Shown: piece after piece, positions 3,136 to 60,326 of the stretch
Layout of the letters: every line of letters begins with the position of its first letter
Numbering within the stretch: the first letter of the stretch is position 1
DNA from: Escherichia coli
Lineage (GTDB): Bacteria > Pseudomonadota > Gammaproteobacteria > Enterobacterales > Enterobacteriaceae
Assembly (NCBI RefSeq): GCF_030013205.1
Contig: NZ_CP122648.1
Direction: 5' to 3' (one strand)
DNA length: 64,000 nt
Position numbers and translations under genes: made by a program
Notes under the pieces: model-generated
Told to the model about the DNA's origin: nothing
Seen by the model: the letters and a program-made list of their open reading frames with translations, nothing else
The model's database searches: none

Positions 3136-4155
3136 ATGTTGCAGTTTATTCTCCGACGTTTGGGACTCGTCATCCCCACGTTTATCGGTATTACCCTTCT
3201 CACATTTGCCTTTGTCCACATGATCCCGGGCGATCCGGTGATGATCATGGCGGGCGAACGTGGGATCTCCCCAGAGCGTCACGCGCAGCTGCTGGCTGAA
3301 CTCGGCTTAGATAAACCGATGTGGCAGCAGTATCTCAATTACATTTGGAGCGTAATGCACGGCGATTTAGGCATTTCGATGAAAAGCCGCATCCCGGTTT
3401 GGGAAGAGTTCGTGCCGCGCTTTCAGGCCACGCTGGAGCTTGGTGTCTGCGCGATGATTTTTGCGACTGCGGTCGGTATTCCAGTCGGTGTGCTGGCTGC
3501 GGTTAAACGCGGTTCCATTTTCGATCACACGGCGGTTGGTCTGGCGCTGACCGGCTACTCGATGCCGATCTTCTGGTGGGGCATGATGCTGATCATGCTG
3601 GTTTCGGTGCACTGGAACCTGACGCCCGTCTCCGGTCGCGTGAGCGACATGGTGTTCCTCGATGATTCCAATCCGTTAACCGGTTTTATGCTAATCGACA
3701 CCGCCATCTGGGGTGAAGACGGTAACTTTATCGATGCCGTCGCCCATATGATCCTGCCCGCCATTGTGCTGGGTACTATCCCGCTGGCGGTCATTGTACG
3801 TATGACACGCTCCTCGATGCTGGAAGTGCTGGGTGAAGATTACATCCGCACCGCGCGCGCCAAAGGGTTGGCCCGCATGCGGGTGATTATCGTCCATGCT
3901 CTGCGTAACGCGATGCTGCCGGTAGTGACCGTTATCGGCCTGCAGGTGGGAACATTGCTGGCGGGGGCGATTCTGACCGAAACCATCTTCTCGTGGCCCG
4001 GTCTGGGGCGCTGGTTGATTGACGCACTGCAACGCCGCGACTATCCGGTAGTGCAGGGCGGCGTATTGCTGGTGGCGACGATGATTATCCTCGTCAACTT
4101 GCTGGTCGATCTGCTGTACGGCGTGGTGAACCCGCGTATTCGTCATAAGAAGTAA
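3136..4155 (+). CDS. dppB: dipeptide ABC transporter permease
   Basis: ORF 3073..4155; start taken at the internal ATG giving a 339-aa product beginning MLQFILRRLG. Confidence 0.9.
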   Translation: MLQFILRRLGLVIPTFIGITLLTFAFVHMIPGDPVMIMAGERGISPERHAQLLAELGLDKPMWQQYLNYIWSVMHGDLGISMKSRIPVWEEFVPRFQATLELGVCAMIFATAVGIPVGVLAAVKRGSIFDHTAVGLALTGYSMPIFWWGMMLIMLVSVHWNLTPVSGRVSDMVFLDDSNPLTGFMLIDTAIWGEDGNFIDAVAHMILPAIVLGTIPLAVIVRMTRSSMLEVLGEDYIRTARAKGLARMRVIIVHALRNAMLPVVTVIGLQVGTLLAGAILTETIFSWPGLGRWLIDALQRRDYPVVQGGVLLVATMIILVNLLVDLLYGVVNPRIRHKK

Positions 4156-4164
4156 GGGGACATC

Positions 4165-5067
4165 ATGTCACAGGTTACTGAAAATAAAGTGATTAGCGCA
4201 CCGGTGCCGATGACCCCGTTACAGGAGTTCTGGCACTATTTTAAACGCAACAAAGGCGCGGTCGTCGGGCTGGTTTACGTCGTCATCGTGCTGTTTATCG
4301 CGATCTTTGCCAACTGGATTGCACCCTATAACCCGGCGGAACAGTTCCGCGATGCACTGCTCGCCCCGCCAGCCTGGCAGGAAGGCGGCAGCATGGCGCA
4401 CTTGCTGGGCACCGATGACGTAGGCCGTGATGTGCTGTCGCGTCTGATGTACGGTGCGCGATTGTCACTGCTGGTTGGCTGTCTGGTAGTTGTGTTATCG
4501 CTGATTATGGGCGTTATTCTCGGCCTGATCGCCGGTTACTTCGGCGGCCTGGTCGATAACATCATCATGCGCGTGGTCGATATCATGCTGGCGCTACCAA
4601 GTCTGCTGTTGGCACTGGTGCTGGTGGCGATTTTCGGCCCGTCGATTGGTAACGCCGCGCTGGCGCTGACCTTCGTTGCCTTGCCGCACTATGTGCGCTT
4701 AACACGCGCCGCCGTGCTGGTGGAGGTGAATCGCGATTACGTTACCGCGTCTCGCGTGGCAGGTGCCGGGGCGATGCGTCAGATGTTTATTAACATCTTC
4801 CCGAACTGCCTTGCGCCTCTGATTGTTCAGGCGTCGCTCGGTTTCTCTAACGCCATTCTCGATATGGCTGCTCTTGGTTTCCTCGGCATGGGGGCGCAGC
4901 CGCCAACGCCGGAGTGGGGCACCATGCTCTCCGACGTGTTGCAGTTCGCGCAAAGCGCCTGGTGGGTCGTGACCTTCCCGGGTCTGGCGATCCTGCTGAC
5001 GGTGCTGGCATTTAACCTGATGGGTGACGGTCTGCGTGACGCGCTCGATCCCAAACTGAAGCAGTAA
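4165..5067 (+). CDS. dppC: dipeptide ABC transporter permease
   Basis: 300-aa polytopic membrane ORF in operon position. Confidence 0.92.
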
Positions 5068-5077
5068 GAGGTTCGAG

Positions 5078-6057
<980 letters not shown>

Positions 6058-6061
<4 letters not shown>

Positions 6062-7062
6062 GTACGCATGAGGCCACCTCGCAACAACCGCTGTTGCAGG
6101 CTATCGACCTGAAAAAACATTATCCGGTGAAGAAAGGTATGTTCGCTCCGGAACGTCTGGTGAAGGCGCTGGATGGCGTTTCGTTTAACCTTGAACGTGG
6201 CAAAACGCTGGCGGTAGTAGGTGAATCCGGCTGCGGTAAATCTACCCTCGGTCGGTTGCTTACGATGATCGAAACGCCCACCGGCGGTGAGCTGTATTAC
6301 CAGGGGCAGGATCTGCTCAAGCACGATCCGCAGGCGCAGAAGCTGCGTCGGCAGAAAATCCAGATCGTCTTCCAGAATCCCTATGGTTCGCTAAATCCGC
6401 GTAAAAAAGTTGGGCAAATTCTTGAAGAGCCGCTGCTTATTAATACCAGCTTAAGCAAAGAACAGCGTCGGGAAAAAGCCCTGTCGATGATGGCGAAAGT
6501 CGGCCTGAAAACCGAGCATTACGACCGCTATCCGCATATGTTCTCCGGCGGTCAGCGTCAGCGTATCGCCATTGCCCGTGGTCTGATGCTCGACCCGGAT
6601 GTGGTGATTGCCGATGAACCGGTTTCCGCGCTGGACGTTTCAGTGCGTGCGCAGGTGCTGAATCTGATGATGGATTTGCAGCAGGAGTTGGGGCTGTCTT
6701 ATGTCTTTATCTCGCACGACCTGTCAGTGGTTGAGCACATTGCCGATGAAGTGATGGTGATGTACCTGGGCCGCTGCGTGGAGAAGGGAACGAAGGACCA
6801 AATCTTCAATAACCCGCGTCATCCGTACACTCAGGCGCTACTCTCCGCGACGCCGCGCCTGAACCCGGACGATCGCCGCGAGCGCATCAAGCTCACCGGT
6901 GAACTGCCAAGCCCGCTCAATCCACCGCCGGGCTGCGCGTTTAACGCCCGCTGTCGTCGGCGCTTCGGCCCCTGCACCCAGTTGCAGCCGCAGCTAAAAG
7001 ACTACGGCGGTCAACTGGTAGCTTGTTTTGCTGTTGATCAGGATGAAAATCCGCAGCGTTAA
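6058..7062 (+). CDS. dppF: dipeptide ABC transporter ATP-binding protein
   Basis: 334 aa; Walker [10 protein letters not shown]; 4-nt overlap with dppD. Confidence 0.93.
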
Positions 7063-7068
7063 CTCACA

Positions 7069-7093
7069 AAACCGGGGCCGTGCGCTCCGGTTT
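7069..7093. terminator. putative bidirectional stem-loop between convergent dppF and yhjV
   Basis: AAACCGG ... CCGGTTT inverted repeat. Confidence 0.4.
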
Positions 7094-8363
7094 ACTCAAT
7101 CAGCTTCAACAGTGGCGACAAGCATAGCAAAATGCCGTAAAGCAGAATCAGCCAGGCTTTAAATCCGCGAAGTTTTTCCAGTTGTGCGACTTTATAGATC
7201 AGGAAAAACGGAATGAGGCACGACACAATGCCATATAACGGGCTTCCCAACTGAAAGAACACCAGCACCGATACACGAAACGAAACCCAAATCGTCAACG
7301 TAATGACGATAAAAGCGCAGATCGCCAGAGTCAGCACGCGTGAATTAATTTTCTTGGTATCAATAATTCGGCTTAACAGATTGAGAATAATGCCTTTAAT
7401 GGCCTCGTGGAAACCGAGATAAATGCCAAAGAATGCGGTCAGTACGGCAAAGATATTCAGCACCGTAGAGGTGATATGAATGATATGCCCAGGGATCACC
7501 TGCGCGGCCAGTGCCAGTGCCGAGATATTTTGTTCAAAGGCAGAAACGGCTTCTTCGTGGCTAATTGAGAAGGTAAACGAAAAGGCAAAAAACAGGATCA
7601 CCGCAATGAGCGTGATATAACTAATTCGGTGGGTACGCAGCGCGAGCCGGGTTGCCAGTACTTTATCTGCTTCCCGTTTACGATAGGCAATATTCATTGG
7701 GTTAAGTACCTGAATAAATACTGCAGAAAAGAAGCAAAATGGAATGGTAAGCAGGACATCGCGGAAAAAGACGGAGGCTTGCGGGAAGGCGGTTATATTG
7801 GCGAAATTCCAGTGCGGGATCATCGCAAAACCGAACACGACAATAATCCCTACTTTGACCACCACCATTGGCCCGGAAATCTTAAACAGTAATCGTTCAC
7901 CACCAGACGCAATTGCCACCAGTACGGCGAAAATGGCGACTTTATAAAGTAGAGATTGTGAAAGATCGGCATCGGTTAAACCGAAGGTTTTCAGGTACGA
8001 GGCGCTGTCGAAAACCACGGAGAGAGAGTAGATAAAAATCCCGTGGATAATCATCAAAAAGTAGATAACCCCGAGGAAAATTCCCCAGTTCTTCCCCAGG
8101 TAATGACTGATAATATCGGTGTAGTCATTACAGGAATCGCTTTCAGAAAGGGTTTTTAAATAAATGTCCTGCACTACCCAGGTGGCAGGATAAGCAATGA
8201 TCGCTGCGGTAATAAATACCCAAATTCCCTTCAAGCCAATTTGTACTGGCATCAGCACGGTTCCGGCACCAATCGCCATGCCTATGCATAATAAAACCCA
8301 GCCGAAGTCGTAGCGTGTAAACGGCAATTTCTGATTGTGTTTCGGTAGTGTGTTGTGCTGCAT
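7092..8363 (-). CDS. yhjV: amino acid permease family inner-membrane transporter
   Basis: ORF 7092..8426; start taken at the internal ATG (8363) giving 423 aa beginning [10 protein letters not shown]; multi-TM. Confidence 0.85.
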
Positions 8364-8721
8364 AAAGTCCTGTCCAGAAAGAAGTCGGCCTCGCAAAAAT
8401 GAATAAACCCAGTTTCTCTTGCGCAACAGGTGGAGAAGTCGAATACGCAGTATGTAAAAAATGAGGCAACAGATTCACTGGGGAGGTCGCGAGGAGGCGC
8501 AATTCTACAAAATTGCGCATTTCACTACCAGTCTGGAGTCAGCTCGGATATGAACTGCAACTATTGCAAATAAAGAAATTAAGCTGGAAGGCATCGCGCA
8601 ATGAGGAAGATTGCCGGGTGCTGACGGTAAAAAGCAATCGTAAAATCAGCGGCAAGCCGGAAAGGTTCCGGTGAGGCGCAATGTTGCGGGGGCTTAATCC
8701 CTGGTGGCATTGGTTGCTGGA

Positions 8722-8790
8722 GAGAGAAAACCCCCGCACGTTGCAGGTATGCACCTGACAACATCACGGGGGCTAATCTTGAACCTAGAC
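8722..8790 (-). ncRNA. rdl: Rdl-type antisense sRNA (antitoxin of ldr), copy 1, approximate ends
   Basis: Antisense of the ldr leader; sequence GTCTAGGTTCAAGATTAGCCCCCG...GCGGGGGTTTTCTC recalled as Rdl-like. Confidence 0.4.
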
Positions 8791-8838
8791 CACTCAAGAA
8801 TAGCCGCGAAACGTTGTCATTACAACACAGGCGGCTAT

Positions 8839-8946
8839 ATGACGCTCGCAGAACTGGGCATGGCCTTCTGGCATGATTTAGCGGCTCCGGTCATTGCTGG
8901 CATTCTTGCCAGCATGATCGTGAACTGGCTGAATAAGCGGAAGTAA
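8839..8946 (+). CDS. ldrD: Ldr family type I toxin, 35 aa (MTLAELGMAFWHDLAAPVIAGILASMIVNWLNKRK)
   Basis: Sits at the 3' end of ORF 8704..8946; product matches the 35-aa Ldr peptide family. Confidence 0.8.
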   Translation: MTLAELGMAFWHDLAAPVIAGILASMIVNWLNKRK

Positions 8947-9205
8947 CGTGTCAGACGGGCGTCAGGCTGCCGTAATGGCAAGTTGCGTCCGGATCAGGCC
9001 GCAGGGATAAAACTCTGCGGCCTTTTTCGTAAGAAAAATGCAACGGTTGCAAGCGGATAATATTCTGCGGAATGCGCAGCACAGAGTGAAGACGTGACGG
9101 ATTCCGGAACAGAAAAACAGTCGTAGAATCAGCGGCAAGCCGGAAAGGTTCCGGTGAGGCGCAATGTTGCGGGGGCTTTATCCCTGGTGGCATTGGTTGC
9201 TGGAG

Positions 9206-50244: not shown

Positions 50245-52227
50245 ATGTCACGTCCGCAATTTACCTCGTTGCGTTTGAGTTTGTTGGCTTTGGCTGTTTC
50301 TGCCACCTTGCCAACGTTTGCTTTTGCTACTGAAACCATGACCGTTACGGCAACGGGGAATGCCCGTAGTTCCTTCGAAGCGCCTATGATGGTCAGCGTC
50401 ATCGACACTTCCGCTCCTGAAAATCAAACGGCTACTTCAGCCACCGATCTGCTGCGTCATGTTCCTGGAATTACTCTTGATGGTACCGGACGAACCAACG
50501 GTCAGGATGTAAATATGCGTGGCTATGATCATCGCGGCGTGCTGGTTCTTGTCGATGGTGTTCGCCAGGGAACGGATACCGGACACCTGAATGGTACTTT
50601 TCTTGATCCGGCGCTGATCAAGCGTGTTGAGATTGTTCGCGGACCTTCAGCATTACTGTATGGCAGTGGCGCGCTGGGTGGAGTGATCTCCTACGATACG
50701 GTCGATGCAAAAGATTTATTGCAGGAAGGACAAAGTAGTGGTTTTCGTGTCTTTGGTACTGGCGGCACGGGGGACCATAGCCTGGGATTAGGCGCGAGCG
50801 CGTTTGGGCGAACTGAAAATCTGGATGGTATTGTGGCCTGGTCCAGTCGCGATCGGGGTGATTTACGCCAGAGCAATGGTGAAACCGCGCCGAATGACGA
50901 GTCCATTAATAACATGCTGGCGAAAGGGACCTGGCAAATTGATTCAGCCCAGTCTCTGAGCGGTTTAGTGCGTTACTACAACAACGACGCGCGTGAACCA
51001 AAAAATCCGCAGACCGTTGAAGCTTCTGATAGCAGCAACCCGATGGTTGATCGTTCTACAATTCAACGCGATGCGCAGCTTTCTTATAAACTCGCCCCGC
51101 AGGGCAACGACTGGTTAAATGCAGATGCAAAAATTTACTGGTCGGAAGTCCGTATTAATGCGCAAAACACGGGGAGTTCCGGCGAGTATCGTGAACAGAT
51201 AACAAAAGGAGCAAGGCTGGAGAACCGTTCCACTCTATTTGCCGACAGTTTCGCTTCTCACTTACTGACATATGGCGGTGAGTATTATCGTCAGGAACAA
51301 CATCCGGGCGGCGCGACGACGGGCTTCCCGCAAGCAAAAATCGATTTTAGCTCTGGCTGGCTACAGGATGAGATCACCTTACGCGATCTGCCGATTACCC
51401 TGCTTGGCGGAACCCGCTATGACAGTTATCGCGGTAGCAGCGACGGCTACAAAGATGTTGATGCTGACAAATGGTCATCTCGTGCGGGGATGACTATCAA
51501 CCCGACCAACTGGCTGATGTTATTTGGCTCATATGCCCAGGCATTCCGCGCCCCGACGATGGGCGAAATGTATAACGATTCTAAGCACTTCTCGATTGGT
51601 CGCTTCTATACCAACTATTGGGTGCCAAACCCGAACTTACGTCCGGAAACTAACGAAACTCAGGAGTACGGTTTTGGGCTGCGTTTTGATGACCTGATGT
51701 TGTCCAATGATGCCCTGGAATTTAAAGCCAGCTACTTTGATACCAAAGCGAAGGATTACATCTCCACGACCGTCGATTTCGCGGCGGCGACGACTATGTC
51801 GTATAACGTCCCGAACGCCAAAATCTGGGGCTGGGATGTGATGACGAAATATACCACTGATCTGTTTAGCCTTGATGTGGCCTATAACCGAACCCGCGGC
51901 AAAGACACCGATACCGGCGAATATATCTCCAGTATTAACCCGGATACCGTTACCAGTACCCTGAATATTCCGATCGCTCATAGTGGCTTCTCTGTTGGTT
52001 GGGTCGGTACGTTTGCCGATCGCTCAACACATATCAGCAGCAGCTACAGCAAACAACCTGGCTATGGCGTGAATGATTTCTACGTCAGTTATCAAGGACA
52101 ACAGGCGCTCAAAGGCATGACCACTACTTTGGTGTTGGGTAACGCTTTCGACAAAGAGTACTGGTCGCCACAAGGCATCCCACAGGATGGTCGTAATGGA
52201 AAAATTTTCGTGAGTTATCAATGGTAA
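50245..52227 (+). CDS. chuA: TonB-dependent outer-membrane haem/haemoglobin receptor
   Basis: 660 aa; signal peptide; TonB-dependent receptor architecture; C-terminal aromatic residue (...SYQW). Confidence 0.9.
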   Translation: MSRPQFTSLRLSLLALAVSATLPTFAFATETMTVTATGNARSSFEAPMMVSVIDTSAPENQTATSATDLLRHVPGITLDGTGRTNGQDVNMRGYDHRGVLVLVDGVRQGTDTGHLNGTFLDPALIKRVEIVRGPSALLYGSGALGGVISYDTVDAKDLLQEGQSSGFRVFGTGGTGDHSLGLGASAFGRTENLDGIVAWSSRDRGDLRQSNGETAPNDESINNMLAKGTWQIDSAQSLSGLVRYYNNDAREPKNPQTVEASDSSNPMVDRSTIQRDAQLSYKLAPQGNDWLNADAKIYWSEVRINAQNTGSSGEYREQITKGARLENRSTLFADSFASHLLTYGGEYYRQEQHPGGATTGFPQAKIDFSSGWLQDEITLRDLPITLLGGTRYDSYRGSSDGYKDVDADKWSSRAGMTINPTNWLMLFGSYAQAFRAPTMGEMYNDSKHFSIGRFYTNYWVPNPNLRPETNETQEYGFGLRFDDLMLSNDALEFKASYFDTKAKDYISTTVDFAAATTMSYNVPNAKIWGWDVMTKYTTDLFSLDVAYNRTRGKDTDTGEYISSINPDTVTSTLNIPIAHSGFSVGWVGTFADRSTHISSSYSKQPGYGVNDFYVSYQGQQALKGMTTTLVLGNAFDKEYWSPQGIPQDGRNGKIFVSYQW

Positions 52228-52275
52228 TCATCTGCCCCGATATTTCGGGGCATTTATCTGGAAGGAAGAGAGACA

Positions 52276-53304
52276 ATGAACCACTACACACGCTGGCTTG
52301 AGTTAAAAGAACAAAATCCCGGAAAGTACGCGCGTGACATCGCAGGTTTAATGAATATTAGCGAAGCAGAACTGGCATTTGCGCGCGTCACGCACGATGC
52401 GTGGCGGATGTGCGGCGATATCCGTGACATTCTGGCGGCGCTCGAAAGTGTTGGCGAGACCAAATGTATTTGTCGTAATGAATATGCAGTCCATGAGCAA
52501 GTTGGTGCGTTCACAAACCAGCATTTGAACGGACATGCCGGATTGATCCTCAATCCGCGCGCGCTGGATTTGCGTCTGTTTCTCAATCAATGGGCCAGTG
52601 TTTTTCACATTAAAGAAAATACGACTCGTGGCGAACGCCAGAGTATTCAGTTCTTTGATCATCAGGGCGATGCATTACTAAAAGTTTATGCCACCGACAA
52701 TACCGATATGGCGGCATGGAGTGAGCTTCTGGCACGGTTTATCACCGATGAGAATACGTCGCTTGAGTTAAAAGCCGTTGATGCGCCAGTTGTTCAAACG
52801 CGAGCCGATGCCAGTGTGGTCGAGCAAGAGTGGCGGGCGATGACCGACGTTCATCAGTTTTTTACGTTGCTCAAGCGCCACAACCTGACGCGCCAACAGG
52901 CGTTCAATCTGGTGGCAGATGATTTGGCCTGCAAAGTATCCAACAGTGCGTTGGCGCAAATTCTTGAATCTGCACAGCAGGATGGCAATGAAATCATGGT
53001 GTTTGTTGGCAACCGTGGCTGCGTACAGATTTTCACCGGTGTGGTAGAAAAAGTGGTGCCAATGAAAGGTTGGCTGAATATTTTTAACCCGACGTTTACT
53101 CTTCATCTATTAGAAGAGAGCATTGCTGAAACCTGGGTAACCCGTAAACCTGCTAGTGACGGTTATGTGACCAGTCTGGAATTGTTTGCCCATGATGGTA
53201 CGCAGATAGCGCAACTTTATGGTCAACGTACAGAAGGCGAACAGGAGCAAGCGCAATGGCGTAAGCAAATTGCTTCGCTGATACCGGAAGGCGTTACTGC
53301 ATAA
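52276..53304 (+). CDS. chuS: cytoplasmic haem-degrading / haem-trafficking protein
   Basis: 342-aa ORF immediately downstream of chuA. Confidence 0.85.
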   Translation: MNHYTRWLELKEQNPGKYARDIAGLMNISEAELAFARVTHDAWRMCGDIRDILAALESVGETKCICRNEYAVHEQVGAFTNQHLNGHAGLILNPRALDLRLFLNQWASVFHIKENTTRGERQSIQFFDHQGDALLKVYATDNTDMAAWSELLARFITDENTSLELKAVDAPVVQTRADASVVEQEWRAMTDVHQFFTLLKRHNLTRQQAFNLVADDLACKVSNSALAQILESAQQDGNEIMVFVGNRGCVQIFTGVVEKVVPMKGWLNIFNPTFTLHLLEESIAETWVTRKPASDGYVTSLELFAHDGTQIAQLYGQRTEGEQEQAQWRKQIASLIPEGVTA

Positions 53305-54858: not shown

Positions 54859-56082
54859 TTATGGGATTATATTCTGGTAATGATTTGATAAGCGAATTCT
54901 TTTGCCAGATGGTGTTTCTATTTCCACCCCATAATTTATAGTTTTTTCATCAGGTAGCGATCTCTTTAAATAAGGTGCGTATGACATTTTTTTTGGGTTA
55001 AGCGTCTCGTATTGAAATACTTCGAATTGATATTCAGACATTTCTGCCCATGTTTGAATTTTATTGTATCGGGGTAGTGTCGTAAAGGCTTTAACTTGCT
55101 TATAACATTGTTTTTTGAATTCTTGCTGATATTTTAATATGTCATTGTATGAAATATTGGTTATCCTGGCCTCTAAGAATTTAATTATTGTCGAAGCAAT
55201 TTCCGCTTTTGCTCGTAAAAAGTTGTCATTAATGGTTAATAATGTTGAAAATAAACCTTCGATTTGTTTGTCAAGATATTGTTCGTCTTTATATAATTTT
55301 GGGGTAGGGTGTTCTTTATGTGAAAAAATAGTGTCACCTAAATTTGCGTCAGTGAAATTTATATTAAGTAGATCTTCGAAATAAAACCTTGACAAGGTTA
55401 GAACGAACCCGGACAGGTTCTGTCCTGTCATATTGAAATCAATAAAGTTGGTTCCGGCAAAGACTTTCATCCTGTTTTTATTTTCACTGTGTTCAATATA
55501 TAACTTCGTCATTTTTTGATACAGGCTTTGAATATCTTTTATATTAGTCGGTAAGTCAGCTCGTTGTTCAGCAATAAAATTAGTATCTGAAAATATGGTT
55601 TGGACACTGAATGTTATGGGTATTCCCTCTTCTACGCTAATTTTAGTTATGATTGCCTTGTCGGGTTTAGGATTAGCGACAACAATGATTCGACATTCAG
55701 CACTTTTGTTCTTTTCGTATCTAATGTTATTAATTTGATTAAGTAGTCCCTGTGCCTGCCGCGTAAGTGGTGTCGAACTTATCGATTCAATGTTAGTAAT
55801 AAGACTTACAAGTTGAGCCACAACTTTTGAGTAGTCTGCATTTGTATATGTGGTGTTCGTGTGGCACGCATTAATTTGTTGGAGTTGTTGTTGCGCTAAA
55901 TCAAATTGTTCAGCGTTATATCCTTCTTCAGACAATGAAAAATTAATGGGTTGCTGTTCTTCCTGATTATCACAAGGCCACATCGGTGTGTCTGGTGTTT
56001 TAACATTGTCGGTATCTGTTGTGCGGTTATAAATATCGCCGTGATATGTATTTATCATACCTGGGGTAAAGTCAATTGACAT
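54859..56082 (-). CDS. yhiS: hypothetical protein, YhiS-like, apparently intact
   Basis: 407-aa uninterrupted ORF in an AT-rich segment; assigned from position between slp and the ars genes; function unknown. Confidence 0.6.
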
Positions 56083-56662
56083 AACATTCCTTATTGTTCA
56101 TCTATTTCGCTAAATTTTTGTAAATCGGAGAATTAGAGCAGGAATGGATTTTCTTCTACGCGGAAATAAACACAATGCGTCATATCTTCCTGATATAATT
56201 ATCTTTAACTTCCCTTTCATTTCCACCCGGTAATATTTGTGTATAAAAAAAGGGCAGTGATAGTATCGTAAAGGAAAACGTTAACAACTATCAAAAAGCG
56301 CTCATTTTAAAAAGTTATGATGTTCACCGATAGTGTGTGAAGTGATATTTTTGTGATGTTTTAGATGTGTAATAATGAACCAGGTTAAAGTGTATTTAAA
56401 AATGTGTTGTATTGGCGACTGAAATCTGCCCTTTAAAAGGGGGGATAGCACTGAAACAAAGAGACATTGCTTCTCCGATAAAATGTCAGAGAAGCATGAT
56501 TGCGTGGTGATTGTCGATTGATGACTTACTGACGGATCCGTCATCATTCTCAAAGCATTAGTTAAGTTATTTGTGATTTTTAAGGATTATCCTATCTATG
56601 ATTTTCTACTCAGAAGGATAAGGCACTCACAATGCTCCTTATAGTTTACTGCTGGCATCTAT

Positions 56663-57676
56663 TTAAAATAGCATTTGAGTCAAATAGCCCATCAAGATAG
56701 CCATACCTAATATAACCGTCAGGAATGCAACTATCATCGGTATTCTGAACATTGATTTAAGTAATATCACTTCCGTCAGACTTGCGCCGGCACTGCCGAT
56801 GATTAATGCCATTAATGCCCCCAGACCCATGCCTTTCGTCATCAGAACTGATGCCAGAGGGATAACCGCCTCTGCCCGGATATATAGCGGAATACCGACA
56901 ACGGCGCTCAATGGGATGGCGAAGGGATTATCTGCCCCTGCATGAGCGGCAATCCACTCTGAGGGAATAAAGCCATAAATAAAAGAGCCTATTAATACCC
57001 CTAACAAAAGATATGGCAGTACATCTTTAAACTGTTGCAACGCATCTTTGGTGGCTAGTTTTATGGGATTAATACTTACCACAGCTTTGGTACTGCAACA
57101 GTTTACTACAGGTTTCTCAATGGCTTTAGCCGCTGGACTACAGCAACTCACTTTTATTGGCGTATATGTCGTCCCCGGCGAAGTTTTGGCTGGAGCACAA
57201 CAATTTGCTGATGAGCTTTTACTGGCAATGATATGACGTTCAAATCCCAGGGAATCCAGGATAATACTGGCAAGTACGGAGACGCCGGCGGCGATAATCG
57301 CGTACAACAAGGTAACTTTCCAGCCAAAGGTCACCCACATTAACCCGACGATAATGGGATTAAGTAATGGGGAAACAAATAAAAAAGTGAGGGTCGGACC
57401 GAACCCGGCTTTCGCTGACAACAATCCACGTAACATTGGGATTGTCGAGCAACTACAGAACGGGGTAACGGCTCCCAACAGAGCCGCCAGGAGATAGCCT
57501 CTCCCTTTTCTGGCCCCCATCATCTGCCGGATTTTATGGTCTGGCACCTTTTGTCTTATCAGGCTCACACCGGCACTAATCACTATAAACAGCAAAGAAA
57601 GCTCAACGGCGAGAAACACAAACATCTCTGCGGCATCTTGCAGCATCGCAAGCCAACTACTCATACGTAACCTCAT
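56663..57676 (-). CDS. ArsP/DUF318-family permease with TPFCSCS motif and cysteine-rich loop (putative organoarsenical or metal(loid) efflux permease)
   Basis: 337-aa polytopic ORF containing GAVTPFCSCSTIP, which I recall as the ArsP signature, plus a central CC-rich segment (NCCAPAK...VSCCSPAAK...VNCCSTK). Confidence 0.7.
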   Translation of the reverse strand: MRLRMSSWLAMLQDAAEMFVFLAVELSLLFIVISAGVSLIRQKVPDHKIRQMMGARKGRGYLLAALLGAVTPFCSCSTIPMLRGLLSAKAGFGPTLTFLFVSPLLNPIIVGLMWVTFGWKVTLLYAIIAAGVSVLASIILDSLGFERHIIASKSSSANCCAPAKTSPGTTYTPIKVSCCSPAAKAIEKPVVNCCSTKAVVSINPIKLATKDALQQFKDVLPYLLLGVLIGSFIYGFIPSEWIAAHAGADNPFAIPLSAVVGIPLYIRAEAVIPLASVLMTKGMGLGALMALIIGSAGASLTEVILLKSMFRIPMIVAFLTVILGMAILMGYLTQMLF

Positions 57677-57771
57677 TGAATAAATCTATATTTCCAGAAT
57701 AATCGAAATGAAATTCAGATCAAGATATTTCTGGTATTATCGAAATATCAACCAGACAAAGGGGGTGTCAT

Positions 57772-58068
57772 ATGCAGTTGGAAGAAGTTGCTAAAGCGCT
57801 GAAAGAGCTAGGTCACCCGAGCCGTTTGTTCATATTCAAACACCTGGTCAAAGCGGGGGAACAAGGTTTGCCCGTCGGTGAGTTGCAAAAGCAGCTTGGG
57901 ATACCCGGCTCTACACTCAGTCACCATATTTCAGCACTGGTATCGGTAGGGCTGGTCAAACAAAACCGTGAGAGTCGAACGCTGATGTGTGTTTCGCAAT
58001 ACGCAATGCTGGAAGCGATAATTGAATTCTTACGCGAGGAGTGCTGCGTAAATAGCAAAATTGCCTGA
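57772..58068 (+). CDS. ArsR/SmtB-family metalloregulatory transcriptional repressor
   Basis: 98 aa with winged-HTH core (GELQKQLGIPGSTLSHHISALVSVGLV) and a C-terminal cysteine pair (EECCVN); divergent from the permease gene. Confidence 0.7.
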   Translation: MQLEEVAKALKELGHPSRLFIFKHLVKAGEQGLPVGELQKQLGIPGSTLSHHISALVSVGLVKQNRESRTLMCVSQYAMLEAIIEFLREECCVNSKIA

Positions 58069-58190
58069 TGCGCTACGCGCTACAGATTTCATGCCATGCA
58101 CGGTTTTGTAGGTCGGATAAGACGCGTTAGCGTCGCATCCGACATAAACAAAGCGCACTTTACCAACTATGGGCAGTGGATATCGCCGCT

Positions 58191-58616
58191 TTATTTCAAG
58201 CGTTTACCCGCTTCATCAACCACTTTCTCGCCATCTTCCTTGGTGAACGCGCCTTGTTGCGCATCTGGCAGAATTTCCAGCACGACTTCTGAAGGGCGGC
58301 ACAGGCGAGTTCCCAACGGCGTCACCACAATCGGGCGATTAATCAGAATCGGGTGCTGAAGCATAAAGTCGATTAACCGATCGTCAGTAAATTTATCTTC
58401 TGCAAGGCCCAGTTCCTCATACGGCTCGACGTTTTTACGCAGCAGCGCGCGTACGGAAATCCCCATATCGGCAATGAGTTTGACCAGTTCATCACGCGTC
58501 GGTGGGGTTTCCAGATAATAGACGATGGTCGGTTCTGTACCGCTGTTGCGGATCATCTCCAGCGTATTACGCGACGTACCGCAGGCCGGGTTGTGATAAA
58601 TGGTAATGTTGCTCAT
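58191..58616 (-). CDS. arsC: arsenate reductase (glutaredoxin-coupled)
   Basis: 141 aa; catalytic cysteine context YHNPACGTSRN. Confidence 0.93.
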   Translation of the reverse strand: MSNITIYHNPACGTSRNTLEMIRNSGTEPTIVYYLETPPTRDELVKLIADMGISVRALLRKNVEPYEELGLAEDKFTDDRLIDFMLQHPILINRPIVVTPLGTRLCRPSEVVLEILPDAQQGAFTKEDGEKVVDEAGKRLK

Positions 58617-58628
58617 ATCAATATCTCA

Positions 58629-59918
58629 TTACAAAGTGAAAGAGAGACGTAGCGCCAGCGCAGCCAGCGTCACAAACAGCACCGGCAGGGTCATGATAAT
58701 CCCTGTACGGAAGTAATATCCCCAGCTGATAGTTATATTCTTCTGCGAAAGTACGTGCAGCCATAGTAGCGTTGCCAGGCTACCAATCGGGGTAATTTTC
58801 GGCCCCAAATCGCAGCCAATTACGTTGGCATAAACCATCGCTTCTTTGATAACGCCAGATGCCGTGCTGCCATCAATGGACAACGCGCCAACCAGTACCG
58901 TCGGCATATTGTTCATAATAGAAGAGAGGAAGGCGGTGAGGAATCCGGTGCCGAGCGTCGCGGCCCACAGGCCATTATCCGCCAGCACGTTGAGTACGCC
59001 AGAAAGATATTCCGTTAGTCCGGCATTGCGCAGGCCATAAACCACCAGATACATGCCGAGCGAGAAGATGACAATCTGCCAGGGCGCACCGCGCAGGACT
59101 TTACCCGTATTAATTGCATGACCGCGTTTAGCGACGGCAAATAATATCAGCGCGCCCACTGCCGCAATGGCGCTGACCGGAATGCCGAGCGGTTCCAGGA
59201 CGAAAAATCCCACCAGCAGAAACAGTAAAACAACCCAGCCAGTTTTGAAGGTGGCAGGATCTTTAATCGCTTCTGCGGGAGATTTCAGCAGCGCCATATC
59301 GTAGTTCTGCGGAATATCTTTGCGGAAATAGAGATGCAACATCACCAGCGTGGCAACAATCGCGGCGATATCCACCGGCACCATCACCGAGGCATATTCG
59401 CGAAAGCCGAGGCCAAAGAAATCTGCGGAAACGATATTCACCAGGTTGGAGACAATAAGCGGCAGGCTGGCGGTATCGGCAATGAACCCGGCCGCCATCA
59501 CGAACGCAAGCGTCGTGCCTTTACTGAACCCTAAAGCCAGCAGCATGGCGATGACAATCGGTGTCAAAATAAGCGCCGCGCCATCATTGGCAAACAGAGC
59601 TGCAACGGCAGCACCGAGCAGGACAATCCAGGTAAACAGCAAGCGACCGCGTCCATTGCCCCAGCGTGAGACGTGCAGCGCCGCCCATTCAAAAAAGCCG
59701 GACTCATCCAGCAGCAGGCTGATGATAATGACGGCAATAAACGCCGCCGTCGCGTTCCAGACGATATTCCACACCACCGGAATATCACCCGGATGTACCA
59801 CGCCCGTAACTAACGCCAGTACTGCGCCAAGCGTTGCACTCCAGCCGATGCCTAAACCTTTCGGCTGCCAGATAACCAATACGATGGTCAGGACAAAGAT
59901 AGCGCCTGCCAGTAACAT
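58629..59918 (-). CDS. arsB: arsenite/antimonite efflux pump
   Basis: 429-aa product from the internal ATG ([10 protein letters not shown]...) within ORF 58629..59939. Confidence 0.9.
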
Positions 59919-59972
59919 AATGCCTCCCGGAAAAAACACATGTGAAAATCCATATGTGTTTAGATAAATTTT

Positions 59973-60326
59973 TTAACTACAAGTGTTCTTACAGTCTACG
60001 GAACAATTTTGTCTGGCCAGGTTGCGGACAATCACCTGAACCTTTTCCTGTTCGCATCGCCAGGCCTGCTCAATAATTTTCGCGGCCCATGATGGAATAT
60101 GCGGTGATAAGCGGTAATGAACCCACTTACCCTGCTTGCGATCCAGCAACAAACCGCTTTCACGAAGAAGCGCCAGATGGCGGGAGATCTTGGGCTGCGA
60201 CTGGTCGAGAGCAGTGCAGAGATCACAGACGCATAACTCTCCCAGCTCGCTGAGCAGTAAAACGATGCCCAGACGGGTTTCATCAGCAAGAATTTTGAAC
60301 AGTTGGATGGGTAACAGAAATGACAT
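59973..60326 (-). CDS. arsR: arsenic-responsive repressor
   Basis: 117 aa; metal-binding site ELCVCDLC and HTH. Confidence 0.92.
   Translation of the reverse strand: MSFLLPIQLFKILADETRLGIVLLLSELGELCVCDLCTALDQSQPKISRHLALLRESGLLLDRKQGKWVHYRLSPHIPSWAAKIIEQAWRCEQEKVQVIVRNLARQNCSVDCKNTCS

Follow-up and report, generated by a model that had tools for sequence, protein, structure and literature searches.

A divergent regulator and permease gene pair beside arsRBC in Escherichia coli: a probable counterpart of the SpArsR/arsP pair of Shewanella putrefaciens 200

Next to the canonical arsRBC operon, the chromosome of Escherichia coli (assembly GCF_030013205.1, contig NZ_CP122648.1) carries two divergently transcribed genes, which annotation pipelines name only as "permease" and "ArsR/SmtB family transcription factor". 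The question addressed here is what this pair senses and exports. The DNA analysed is a segment of the E. coli chromosome of 64,000 nucleotides, referred to below as the window. The initial annotation, made from the sequence alone, had read the pair as an ArsP-type permease with its own ArsR-family regulator, and had left the substrate open. By analogy with a characterised system, we consider it probable that the pair is a self-contained sensor and efflux unit for trivalent organoarsenicals, the E. coli counterpart of SpArsR/arsP of Shewanella putrefaciens 200. It is thus a further member of the known SpArsR/ArsP kind and not a new system.

The permease gene lies at 56663–57664 on the minus strand and encodes 333 residues from the ATG at 57664. 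This is the second ATG of the open reading frame: the upstream alternative, ATG 57676, gives a protein of 337 residues (56663–57676, minus strand), in which the start chosen by RefSeq and the Prokaryotic Genome Annotation Pipeline (PGAP) for an identical genome is M5. A GAGG sequence 6 nt 5′ of ATG 57664 fits the shorter form. The second ArsR/SmtB regulator, of the SpArsR type, is encoded at 57772–58068 on the plus strand and has 98 residues. Both open reading frames are therefore present as initially described, with the permease in its 337-residue form. The regulator is indeed close to arsC, although the distance is 122 bp from stop codon to stop codon (58191) and not about 100 bp. Profile searches agree with the families that had been proposed. 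The permease matches Pfam ArsP_1 (PF03773, or DUF318; the organo-arsenical exporter family of TCDB) over its full length (E = 2.8e-52, model positions 3–293 of 294), and the regulator matches HTH_20 (E = 1.6e-13), HTH_5 (also above cutoff) and the NCBIfam model NF033788 (59.8 bits, cutoff 55).

The evidence that carries the proposed function comes from Shewanella. In the literature, one ArsR with a two-cysteine arrangement has been described, SpArsR of S. putrefaciens 200, which Chen, Nadar & Rosen 2017 are said to have identified as a repressor of arsP selective for methylarsenite (MAs(III)). As stand-ins for strain 200 we used a near-identical Shewanella contig (L089) and its regulator (P0242). 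In strain 200 the locus tags are Sput200_1227 for arsR and Sput200_1226 for arsP, and the arsP promoter was defined as the 222 bp upstream of Sput200_1226 and printed, within a construct, in Text S3 (PMC12124457). This promoter is 96% identical (214/222) to a 221-bp spacer of L089, flanked by a PF03773 permease with a CC-rich loop and by the 105-residue P0242, which has Cys-Cys at 101–102. The synthetic arsR of the construct translates piecewise to the P0242 sequence; the supplement text is garbled in places by dropped letters and was matched piecewise by reading frame. From the matches of both promoter and arsR it follows that SpArsR/arsP and the E. coli pair belong to the same two-gene family.

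The two pairs have much in common. The regulators of E. coli and L089 (P0242) share 55% identity over 92 residues, with Cys91-Cys92 aligned on Cys101-Cys102 and the wing residue Cys73 on Cys83, and the segment STLSHHIS, which is probably the DNA-recognition helix, is identical. The E. coli permease is 53% identical to that of L089 over its full length, and both have a CC-rich loop. The divergent layout is shared, as is a sequence box, ATTTCTGGTATTATCGAA, present in the arsP promoters of both E. coli and S. putrefaciens 200. There are also differences. The spacer is 107 bp in E. coli and 221–222 bp in Shewanella, and the E. coli regulator lacks a 10-residue N-terminal extension. The E. coli pair adjoins arsRBC, whereas the Shewanella pair is in an arsJ/arsC/arr island with a glutathione-synthase-like gene downstream.

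The selectivity of SpArsR for MAs(III) over As(III) is explained by the presence of Cys101/Cys102 and the lack of the third Cys of the Acidithiobacillus ferrooxidans regulator AfArsR (PMC11868830, PMC13236881). In E. coli MG1655 ΔarsRBC, SpArsR/ParsP reached 73% of full derepression with 1 µM monomethylarsenite (MMAs(III)) and 9% with 50 µM As(III), and did not respond to pentavalent forms (PMC12124457). Given a homologous module that is induced by MAs(III) and not by As(III), the substrate of the E. coli pair is less open than it had first appeared. The E. coli locus has the features of the SpArsR type, namely a C-terminal Cys pair, no third Cys, and a divergent arsP with a shared operator.

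The cysteines of the E. coli regulator are only three, Cys73, Cys91 and Cys92, with none in residues 1–72. Cys91 and Cys92 (codons 58042–58047, plus strand) form a predicted two-coordinate site for trivalent organoarsenicals. The initial annotation had the protein ending in this pair; the pair is indeed C-terminal, although it is not at the very end, being residues 91–92 of 98 and followed by VNSKIA and the stop codon, with no further Cys. Cys73 (codon 57988–57990, plus strand) is in the β-wing and is conserved in the family. The equivalent Cys83 is also present in the SpArsR-type protein, which is nearly insensitive to As(III), so a wing Cys alone gives no As(III) response there. The best PDB match is AfArsR (6J05, E = 9.6e-10, identity about 32%), and Cys91-Cys92 aligns exactly on its As(III) ligands Cys95/Cys96, at the same place at the end of the last helix. 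AfArsR senses inorganic As(III) and has a third ligand, Cys102, whereas the E. coli regulator stops six residues after the pair, and so has only the first two residues of this type 2 site (Cys95, Cys96, Cys102). The type 1 site of R773/E. coli ArsR is absent, as there is no Cys in the first 72 residues; the neighbouring classical ArsR carries ELCVCDLC. In the persulfide sensors BigR and SqrR a Cys in the N-terminal half (α2 helix) is paired with a C-terminal Cys, and the regulator has no such N-terminal Cys. A BigR assignment was considered and rejected (NF040642, 38.4 bits, cutoff 155).

A scan of species-representative genomes gave 80 loci, mostly from Vibrio, Shewanella and Photobacterium, in which the permease is 48–74% identical to that of E. 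coli (best segment). Neighbour clustering at 79 species-level loci shows that the regulator is the sole conserved neighbour of the permease within 6 kb. It was found at 60 of the 79 loci and within 400 bp at 54, in 47 of which it is divergent; neighbourhood clustering over 83 loci gave no conserved third gene. The Cys-Cys pair is kept in all 60 partner regulators from other species and Cys73 in 58 of them, and in 27 there is another Cys no more than nine residues beyond the pair, typically as CCx4C and mainly in Vibrio. The regulators of Vibrio loci L017, L025, L035, L037, L038, L044, L045 and others end in ECC-x4-C, for example ECCADEECQ, and their genes are about 100–400 bp upstream of the permease. 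Their Cys layout is like that of AfArsR Cys95/96/102, which suggests that the three-Cys members from Vibrio respond to inorganic As(III)/Sb(III) or to some other thiophilic ion, and not to methylarsenite alone.

The divergent promoter/operator region between the two genes (57665–57771, 107 bp) contains two predicted operator boxes. Box 1, ATTTCCAGAATAATCGAAAT, has the form ATTTC-N10-GAAAT (57690–57709, plus strand) and is conserved in the comparison. Box 2, GATATTTCTGGTATTATCGAAATATC, is a 26-bp element with perfect 8-nt inverted arms (57724–57749, plus strand), and its ATTTC-N10-GAAAT core at 57727–57746 places the boxes 37 bp apart. A degenerate form of the pattern matches only these two places in the window, against 0.03 expected by chance. 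The spacer is conserved among E. coli, IncF plasmids, Aeromonas and Citrobacter, and in an alignment of E. coli, an IncF plasmid copy, Aeromonas and Citrobacter there are 22 invariant columns, ATATTTCTGGTATTATCGAAAT, at 57725–57746. The published S. putrefaciens 200 arsP promoter has a sequence nearly identical to box 2, AGATATTTCTGGTATTATCGAATTAC. Promoter-like hexamers on both strands overlap the boxes, these being consensus matches only. A repressor of Noviherbaspirillum denitrificans that responds to MAs(III) likewise has a Cys-Cys near its end, ...QQRCCQG (Nd-ars-gBlock, Text S3, PMC12124457), and the promoter from this species carries ATTTCCAGTATTTTGAAAT, resembling box 1; this type of operator may be common to a wider clade of regulators.

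The assignment of the permease to the ArsP family is upheld by its membership of PF03773 and by its homology to the Shewanella pair. The motif that had been taken as the hallmark of ArsP is a poorer guide. TPFCSCS (57446–57466, minus strand; residues 67–73 in the 333-residue numbering) occurs across the superfamily. The CSC tripeptide is described in a preprint as the most strongly conserved motif of the whole superfamily, including the SO_0444 Cu/Zn efflux proteins and SaoE, and TPFCSCS recurs in a second PF03773 permease of Shewanella, at only 30% identity. The motif therefore marks the superfamily and not specificity for organoarsenicals. Similarly, the permease has a vicinal Cys-x-Cys in a membrane segment, but so do relatives that are not ArsP, and this feature, though necessary, is not diagnostic. 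Residues T67–S73 are invariant in an alignment of 49 sequences that includes paralogues of 29–34% identity. TPFCSCST was itself one of the patterns searched for, which makes invariance across the 80 fetched loci partly circular, and the case for conservation of the motif is instead made by these paralogues and by the preprint on CSC. Cys70 and Cys72 are presumed to be the substrate-binding thiol pair inside the membrane. In the AlphaFold2 model (predicted local distance difference test score, pLDDT, 85.3; predicted template-modelling score, pTM, 0.80) TPFCSCS is at a helix break, between helices 52–66 and 71–83. No solved structure matches the permease by sequence or by fold (best Foldseek E = 0.59), and its fold is thus without an experimental representative; its relatives in the AlphaFold database are all unnamed permeases.

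The permease shares its superfamily and the CSC motif with SO_0444 and SaoE, but it scores 107.7 bits against the SO_0444 family model NF033936 (cutoff 300) and 84.1 bits against the SaoE model NF040736 (cutoff 325), and is a member of neither; both assignments were rejected. ArsP of Campylobacter jejuni likewise belongs to PF03773, has a vicinal Cys-x-Cys in a membrane segment, and is part of an arsenic gene cluster. It has 315 residues and is shorter than the E. coli permease, and Chen et al. 2015 are said to have found its vicinal Cys-x-Cys to be required for transport. It exports MAs(III) and trivalent roxarsone, and not As(III) (PMC6205960).

The most unusual part of the permease is its central loop (57065–57232, minus strand, approximately residues 145–200). 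This is a low-complexity segment rich in Cys and Lys, in which the three Cys-Cys pairs noted at the outset are indeed present, as NCCA, SCCS and NCCS. Residues 160–192 have a pLDDT below 50 in the AlphaFold2 model and are predicted to be disordered. The central loop has a charge of +9/−2 and the loop between transmembrane (TM) segments TM1 and TM2 one of +5/−1, and from this strong positive charge both loops would be placed in the cytoplasm; for the central loop we regard this as probable from its sequence. Across the 79 species the loop is 35–112 residues long with 1–10 Cys (median 7), and Cys makes up 8.1% of loop residues compared to 0.77% in the rest of the protein. At least one Cys-Cys is present in 54 of the 79 loops, the range being from one CxxxC up to five Cys-Cys pairs, while His and Met are almost absent. 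It is therefore the composition of the loop that is kept between species, and not its sequence. E. coli alleles of the permease range from 298 to 338 residues, and in aligned variants the differences in length are within the Cys-rich loop.

These features bring to mind ArsD, in which vicinal Cys-Cys pairs bind trivalent arsenic and pass it to a pump. The likeness to the three Cys-Cys pairs of the E. coli loop is an analogy that serves as a hypothesis only: there is no sequence relationship, and the E. coli loop belongs to the transporter itself, as a disordered segment. We suggest, tentatively and with considerable doubt, that the loop could be a built-in device for capture of the substrate, in which each thiol pair would hold one organoarsenical of the two-coordinate kind and hand it on to the Cys-x-Cys site in the membrane, and in which rapid changes in length and in the number of Cys-Cys pairs between strains and species could tune capacity or specificity.

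The gene neighbourhood adds to the case in some lineages. Arsenic genes adjoin the pair only in some of them (Enterobacterales and Shewanella), and in several arrangements. In Salmonella the pair is accompanied by arsRDABC, and arsH directly follows the regulator (ArsH 405.6 bits, cutoff 292); on IncF plasmids this same gene has been cut by an IS26 element. In the literature ArsH is an enzyme that oxidises trivalent organoarsenicals, so its co-transcription with the regulator fits an organoarsenical role, and the recurrent linkage of arsH also points to an organoarsenical substrate. In Buttiauxella arsRBC is on the opposite side of the permease, a Proteus plasmid has the pair together with arrA-like, arsB and arsC genes, and in Shewanella the pair is in an arsJ/arsC/arr/arsDAB island. 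In Citrobacter arsRDABC and the pair are found inside a lambdoid prophage, where the island (L006–L008 and L010, approximately 3230–9092) lies between DnaT-/lambda-P-like replication genes and DinI/RusA/lysis genes, and is apparently phage cargo. Outside Enterobacterales and Shewanella, context alone does not identify the substrate. No support was found for a control of arsH by SpArsR: a literature search for S. putrefaciens 200 with arsP and arsH gave nothing, and there is no arsH adjoining the pair in the Shewanella contigs examined.

The Shewanella islands contain further genes of interest. Directly downstream of the permease and co-oriented with it is a glutathione-synthase-like gene of the TIGR01986 (eukaryotic) type (about 220 bits, below cutoff; L040:11120-12553, L089:770-2197), which may supply thiol. 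The second PF03773 permease in these islands, mentioned above, has no Cys-rich loop (L040:6646-7892, L089:4857-6103). The gene 3′ of it encodes an MTH895/ArsE-family thioredoxin-like protein in L089 (82.8 bits), and there is an open reading frame of 83 residues at this place in L040. Two distinct PF03773 clades can thus be present within one Shewanella island, and tandem PF03773 pairs are also found in L012 and L013.

Within E. coli the pair is widespread, though not universal. Of 5426 complete E. coli genomes, 2224 (about 41%) contain a match to at least 80% of a 1.8-kb query made up of both genes and their flanks. The query matches 995 PLSDB plasmid records, with coverage of at least 80% in 264, and clusters of proteins 97% identical to the permease run to thousands of members. 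The initial annotation had given these genes no place in the K-12 gene order, and they are indeed missing there: blastn junctions and alignments show that a 1.6-kb stretch (56399–57998) is replaced in K-12 by approximately 99 unrelated bases. Beside this deletion scar is a decayed remnant of the last 65 bp or so of the regulator gene, in which TGCTGC has become TACTGT (NC_000913.3, approximately 3650760–3650875, between arsC and yhiS, corresponding to 57999–58068 of the window). The presence of this remnant implies that the pair was lost from the K-12 lineage and not gained here. The scar itself looks like plain intergenic DNA. In Shigella there are permease copies shortened to 223–257 residues (AlphaFold database entries A0AB36PK37, A0A0I0R8U0 and A0A376M2I0).

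Taken together, these results suggest a mechanism. A dimer of the 98-residue repressor would bind both ATTTC-N10-GAAAT operators of the 107-bp region, which are separated by 37 bp, and would silence both its own gene and that of the permease, as is suggested by the conservation of the operators and by the Shewanella system. Methylarsenite would bind the vicinal thiols of Cys91-Cys92 at the end of the C-terminal helix, where two sulfur ligands should suffice, and aromatic As(III) compounds such as reduced roxarsone would probably bind there too. To judge from SpArsR and AfArsR, inorganic As(III) would be a poor inducer, as it needs three ligands and there is no third Cys. On derepression, the permease would export the organoarsenical by way of the Cys70/Cys72 site at the helix break, as its family membership suggests, and the disordered Cys-Cys-rich loop may, more speculatively, capture the substrate and pass it to this site. 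The adjoining arsRBC handles inorganic arsenic, so that the two regulators of the whole cluster would differ in specificity.

A number of observations weigh against this reading. Identity to the Shewanella pair is only 53–55%, and no open-access report was found of a transport assay on the Shewanella permease itself. Epsilonproteobacterial relatives are only about 28–35% identical to the E. coli permease (with template-modelling scores near 0.8), so that its transport specificity is extrapolated. The curated NCBIfam models closest to the permease are those for SO_0444 Cu/Zn efflux and SaoE, though far below their cutoffs. The pair is solitary in most marine species: neither an arsB nor an arsC homologue lies within 10 kb of it, and no further gene recurs as a neighbour within 6 kb. 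Because of the third Cys in 27 of the 60 partner regulators, the family overall may respond to inorganic As(III)/Sb(III) or to other thiophilic ions as well. The conserved Cys73 could also act as a third ligand. The pair might then be a general efflux system for thiophilic metals and metalloids (As(III)/Sb(III), Cd, Hg or Cu(I)), with organoarsenicals as one substrate or a minor one and with Cys73 perhaps as the third ligand. The scores of 107.7 and 84.1 bits against SO_0444 and SaoE, the CSC motif common to both, the loop rich in Cys and almost free of His and Met, the AfArsR-like third Cys in other species and the absence of nearby ars genes at most loci would all fit. We nevertheless think general metal efflux unlikely. 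Those scores fall far short of the cutoffs (300 and 325 bits), no Cys follows the pair in the E. coli regulator, and SpArsR, wing Cys included, is nearly blind to 50 µM As(III). Moreover, it is arsH that accompanies the regulator in Salmonella and on plasmids of the IncF group, and ArsB next door already serves As(III)/Sb(III).

It could also be argued that the regulator is a thiol-redox or persulfide sensor like BigR, SqrR or YgaV, with a permease that exports sulfur or electrophile species and with only incidental proximity to ars genes. Its second and third PDB matches are YgaV (E = 1.6e-7) and BigR (E = 4.4e-7), there is a weak NCBIfam match to BigR, and a glutathione-synthase-like gene follows the Shewanella permease. 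We give this very little credence, in view of the BigR score of 38 bits against a cutoff of 155, the lack of a Cys in the N-terminal half, the demonstrated response of the Shewanella homologue to MAs(III), and the repeated linkage of the pair to ars, arr and arsH genes. The K-12 deletion scar raises a different possibility, that the pair is an inactive relic in E. coli, heading for loss as in K-12 and Shigella and with no role in resistance today. A full copy is absent from more than half of complete genomes, the Shigella entries are shortened, and the chromosomal copy has no arsH. However, both reading frames are intact here, and 2224 complete genomes have a match over at least 80% of the query; the near-identical permease clusters are very large, a related copy is present in 995 plasmid records, and the operator boxes and the Cys-Cys pair are conserved. 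A relic is thus improbable, and a unit for sensing and efflux of trivalent organoarsenicals remains the reading that we prefer.

The surroundings of the pair are as follows. The gene order in the window is chuA, chuS, dctR, slp, a yhiS-like open reading frame, permease, second regulator, arsC, arsB, arsR, dinQ and gor. The canonical arsRBC operon (58191–60326, minus strand) is adjacent context, outside the two-gene module; arsC is at 58191–58616, arsB at 58629–59918 and arsR at 59973–60326, all on the minus strand, as supported by the PGAP annotation of an identical genome. NCBIfam models match two of the products, with PRK10026 at 305 bits for ArsC and PRK10141 at 228 bits for ArsR. A classical arsRBC therefore adjoins the pair, and the composite cluster with two regulators that was initially proposed is borne out. 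Between the regulator and arsC, within 58100–58150, is a palindromic element resembling the repetitive extragenic palindromic (REP) type, gtaggtcggataagacgcgttagcgtcgcatccgac, which explains many short matches elsewhere in E. coli genomes (query positions 1708–1745). The yhiS-like reading frame (407 residues, 54859–56082, minus strand) is intact in the window and has no NCBIfam match; yhiS is split by IS5 in K-12, and is annotated as frameshifted in the otherwise identical strain ETEC1748. The neighbours of dctR are chuA-chuS (50245–53304) in the window and yhiD-hdeB in K-12, a second difference in gene order from K-12 in the same neighbourhood.

Methylarsenite is a product of arsenic-methylating microbes and is far more toxic than arsenite. 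According to a review of the gut microbiome, the activities of ArsP and ArsH have not been evaluated in gut bacteria. On the reading preferred here, a likely methylarsenite sensor and pump is present in about 41% of complete E. coli genomes and on many plasmids of the IncF type from E. coli, Salmonella and Klebsiella. The pair is absent from K-12, the parent of the Δars biosensor host (PMC12124457), which may explain why it has been overlooked. For biosensors selective for MAs(III), its regulator and operator would be an alternative native to E. coli. Should the loop indeed capture substrate, the clade with Cys-rich loops would differ in its mode of action from C. jejuni ArsP, the characterised transporter, and some members of the family, such as those of Vibrio with three-Cys regulators, may be tuned beyond methylarsenite.

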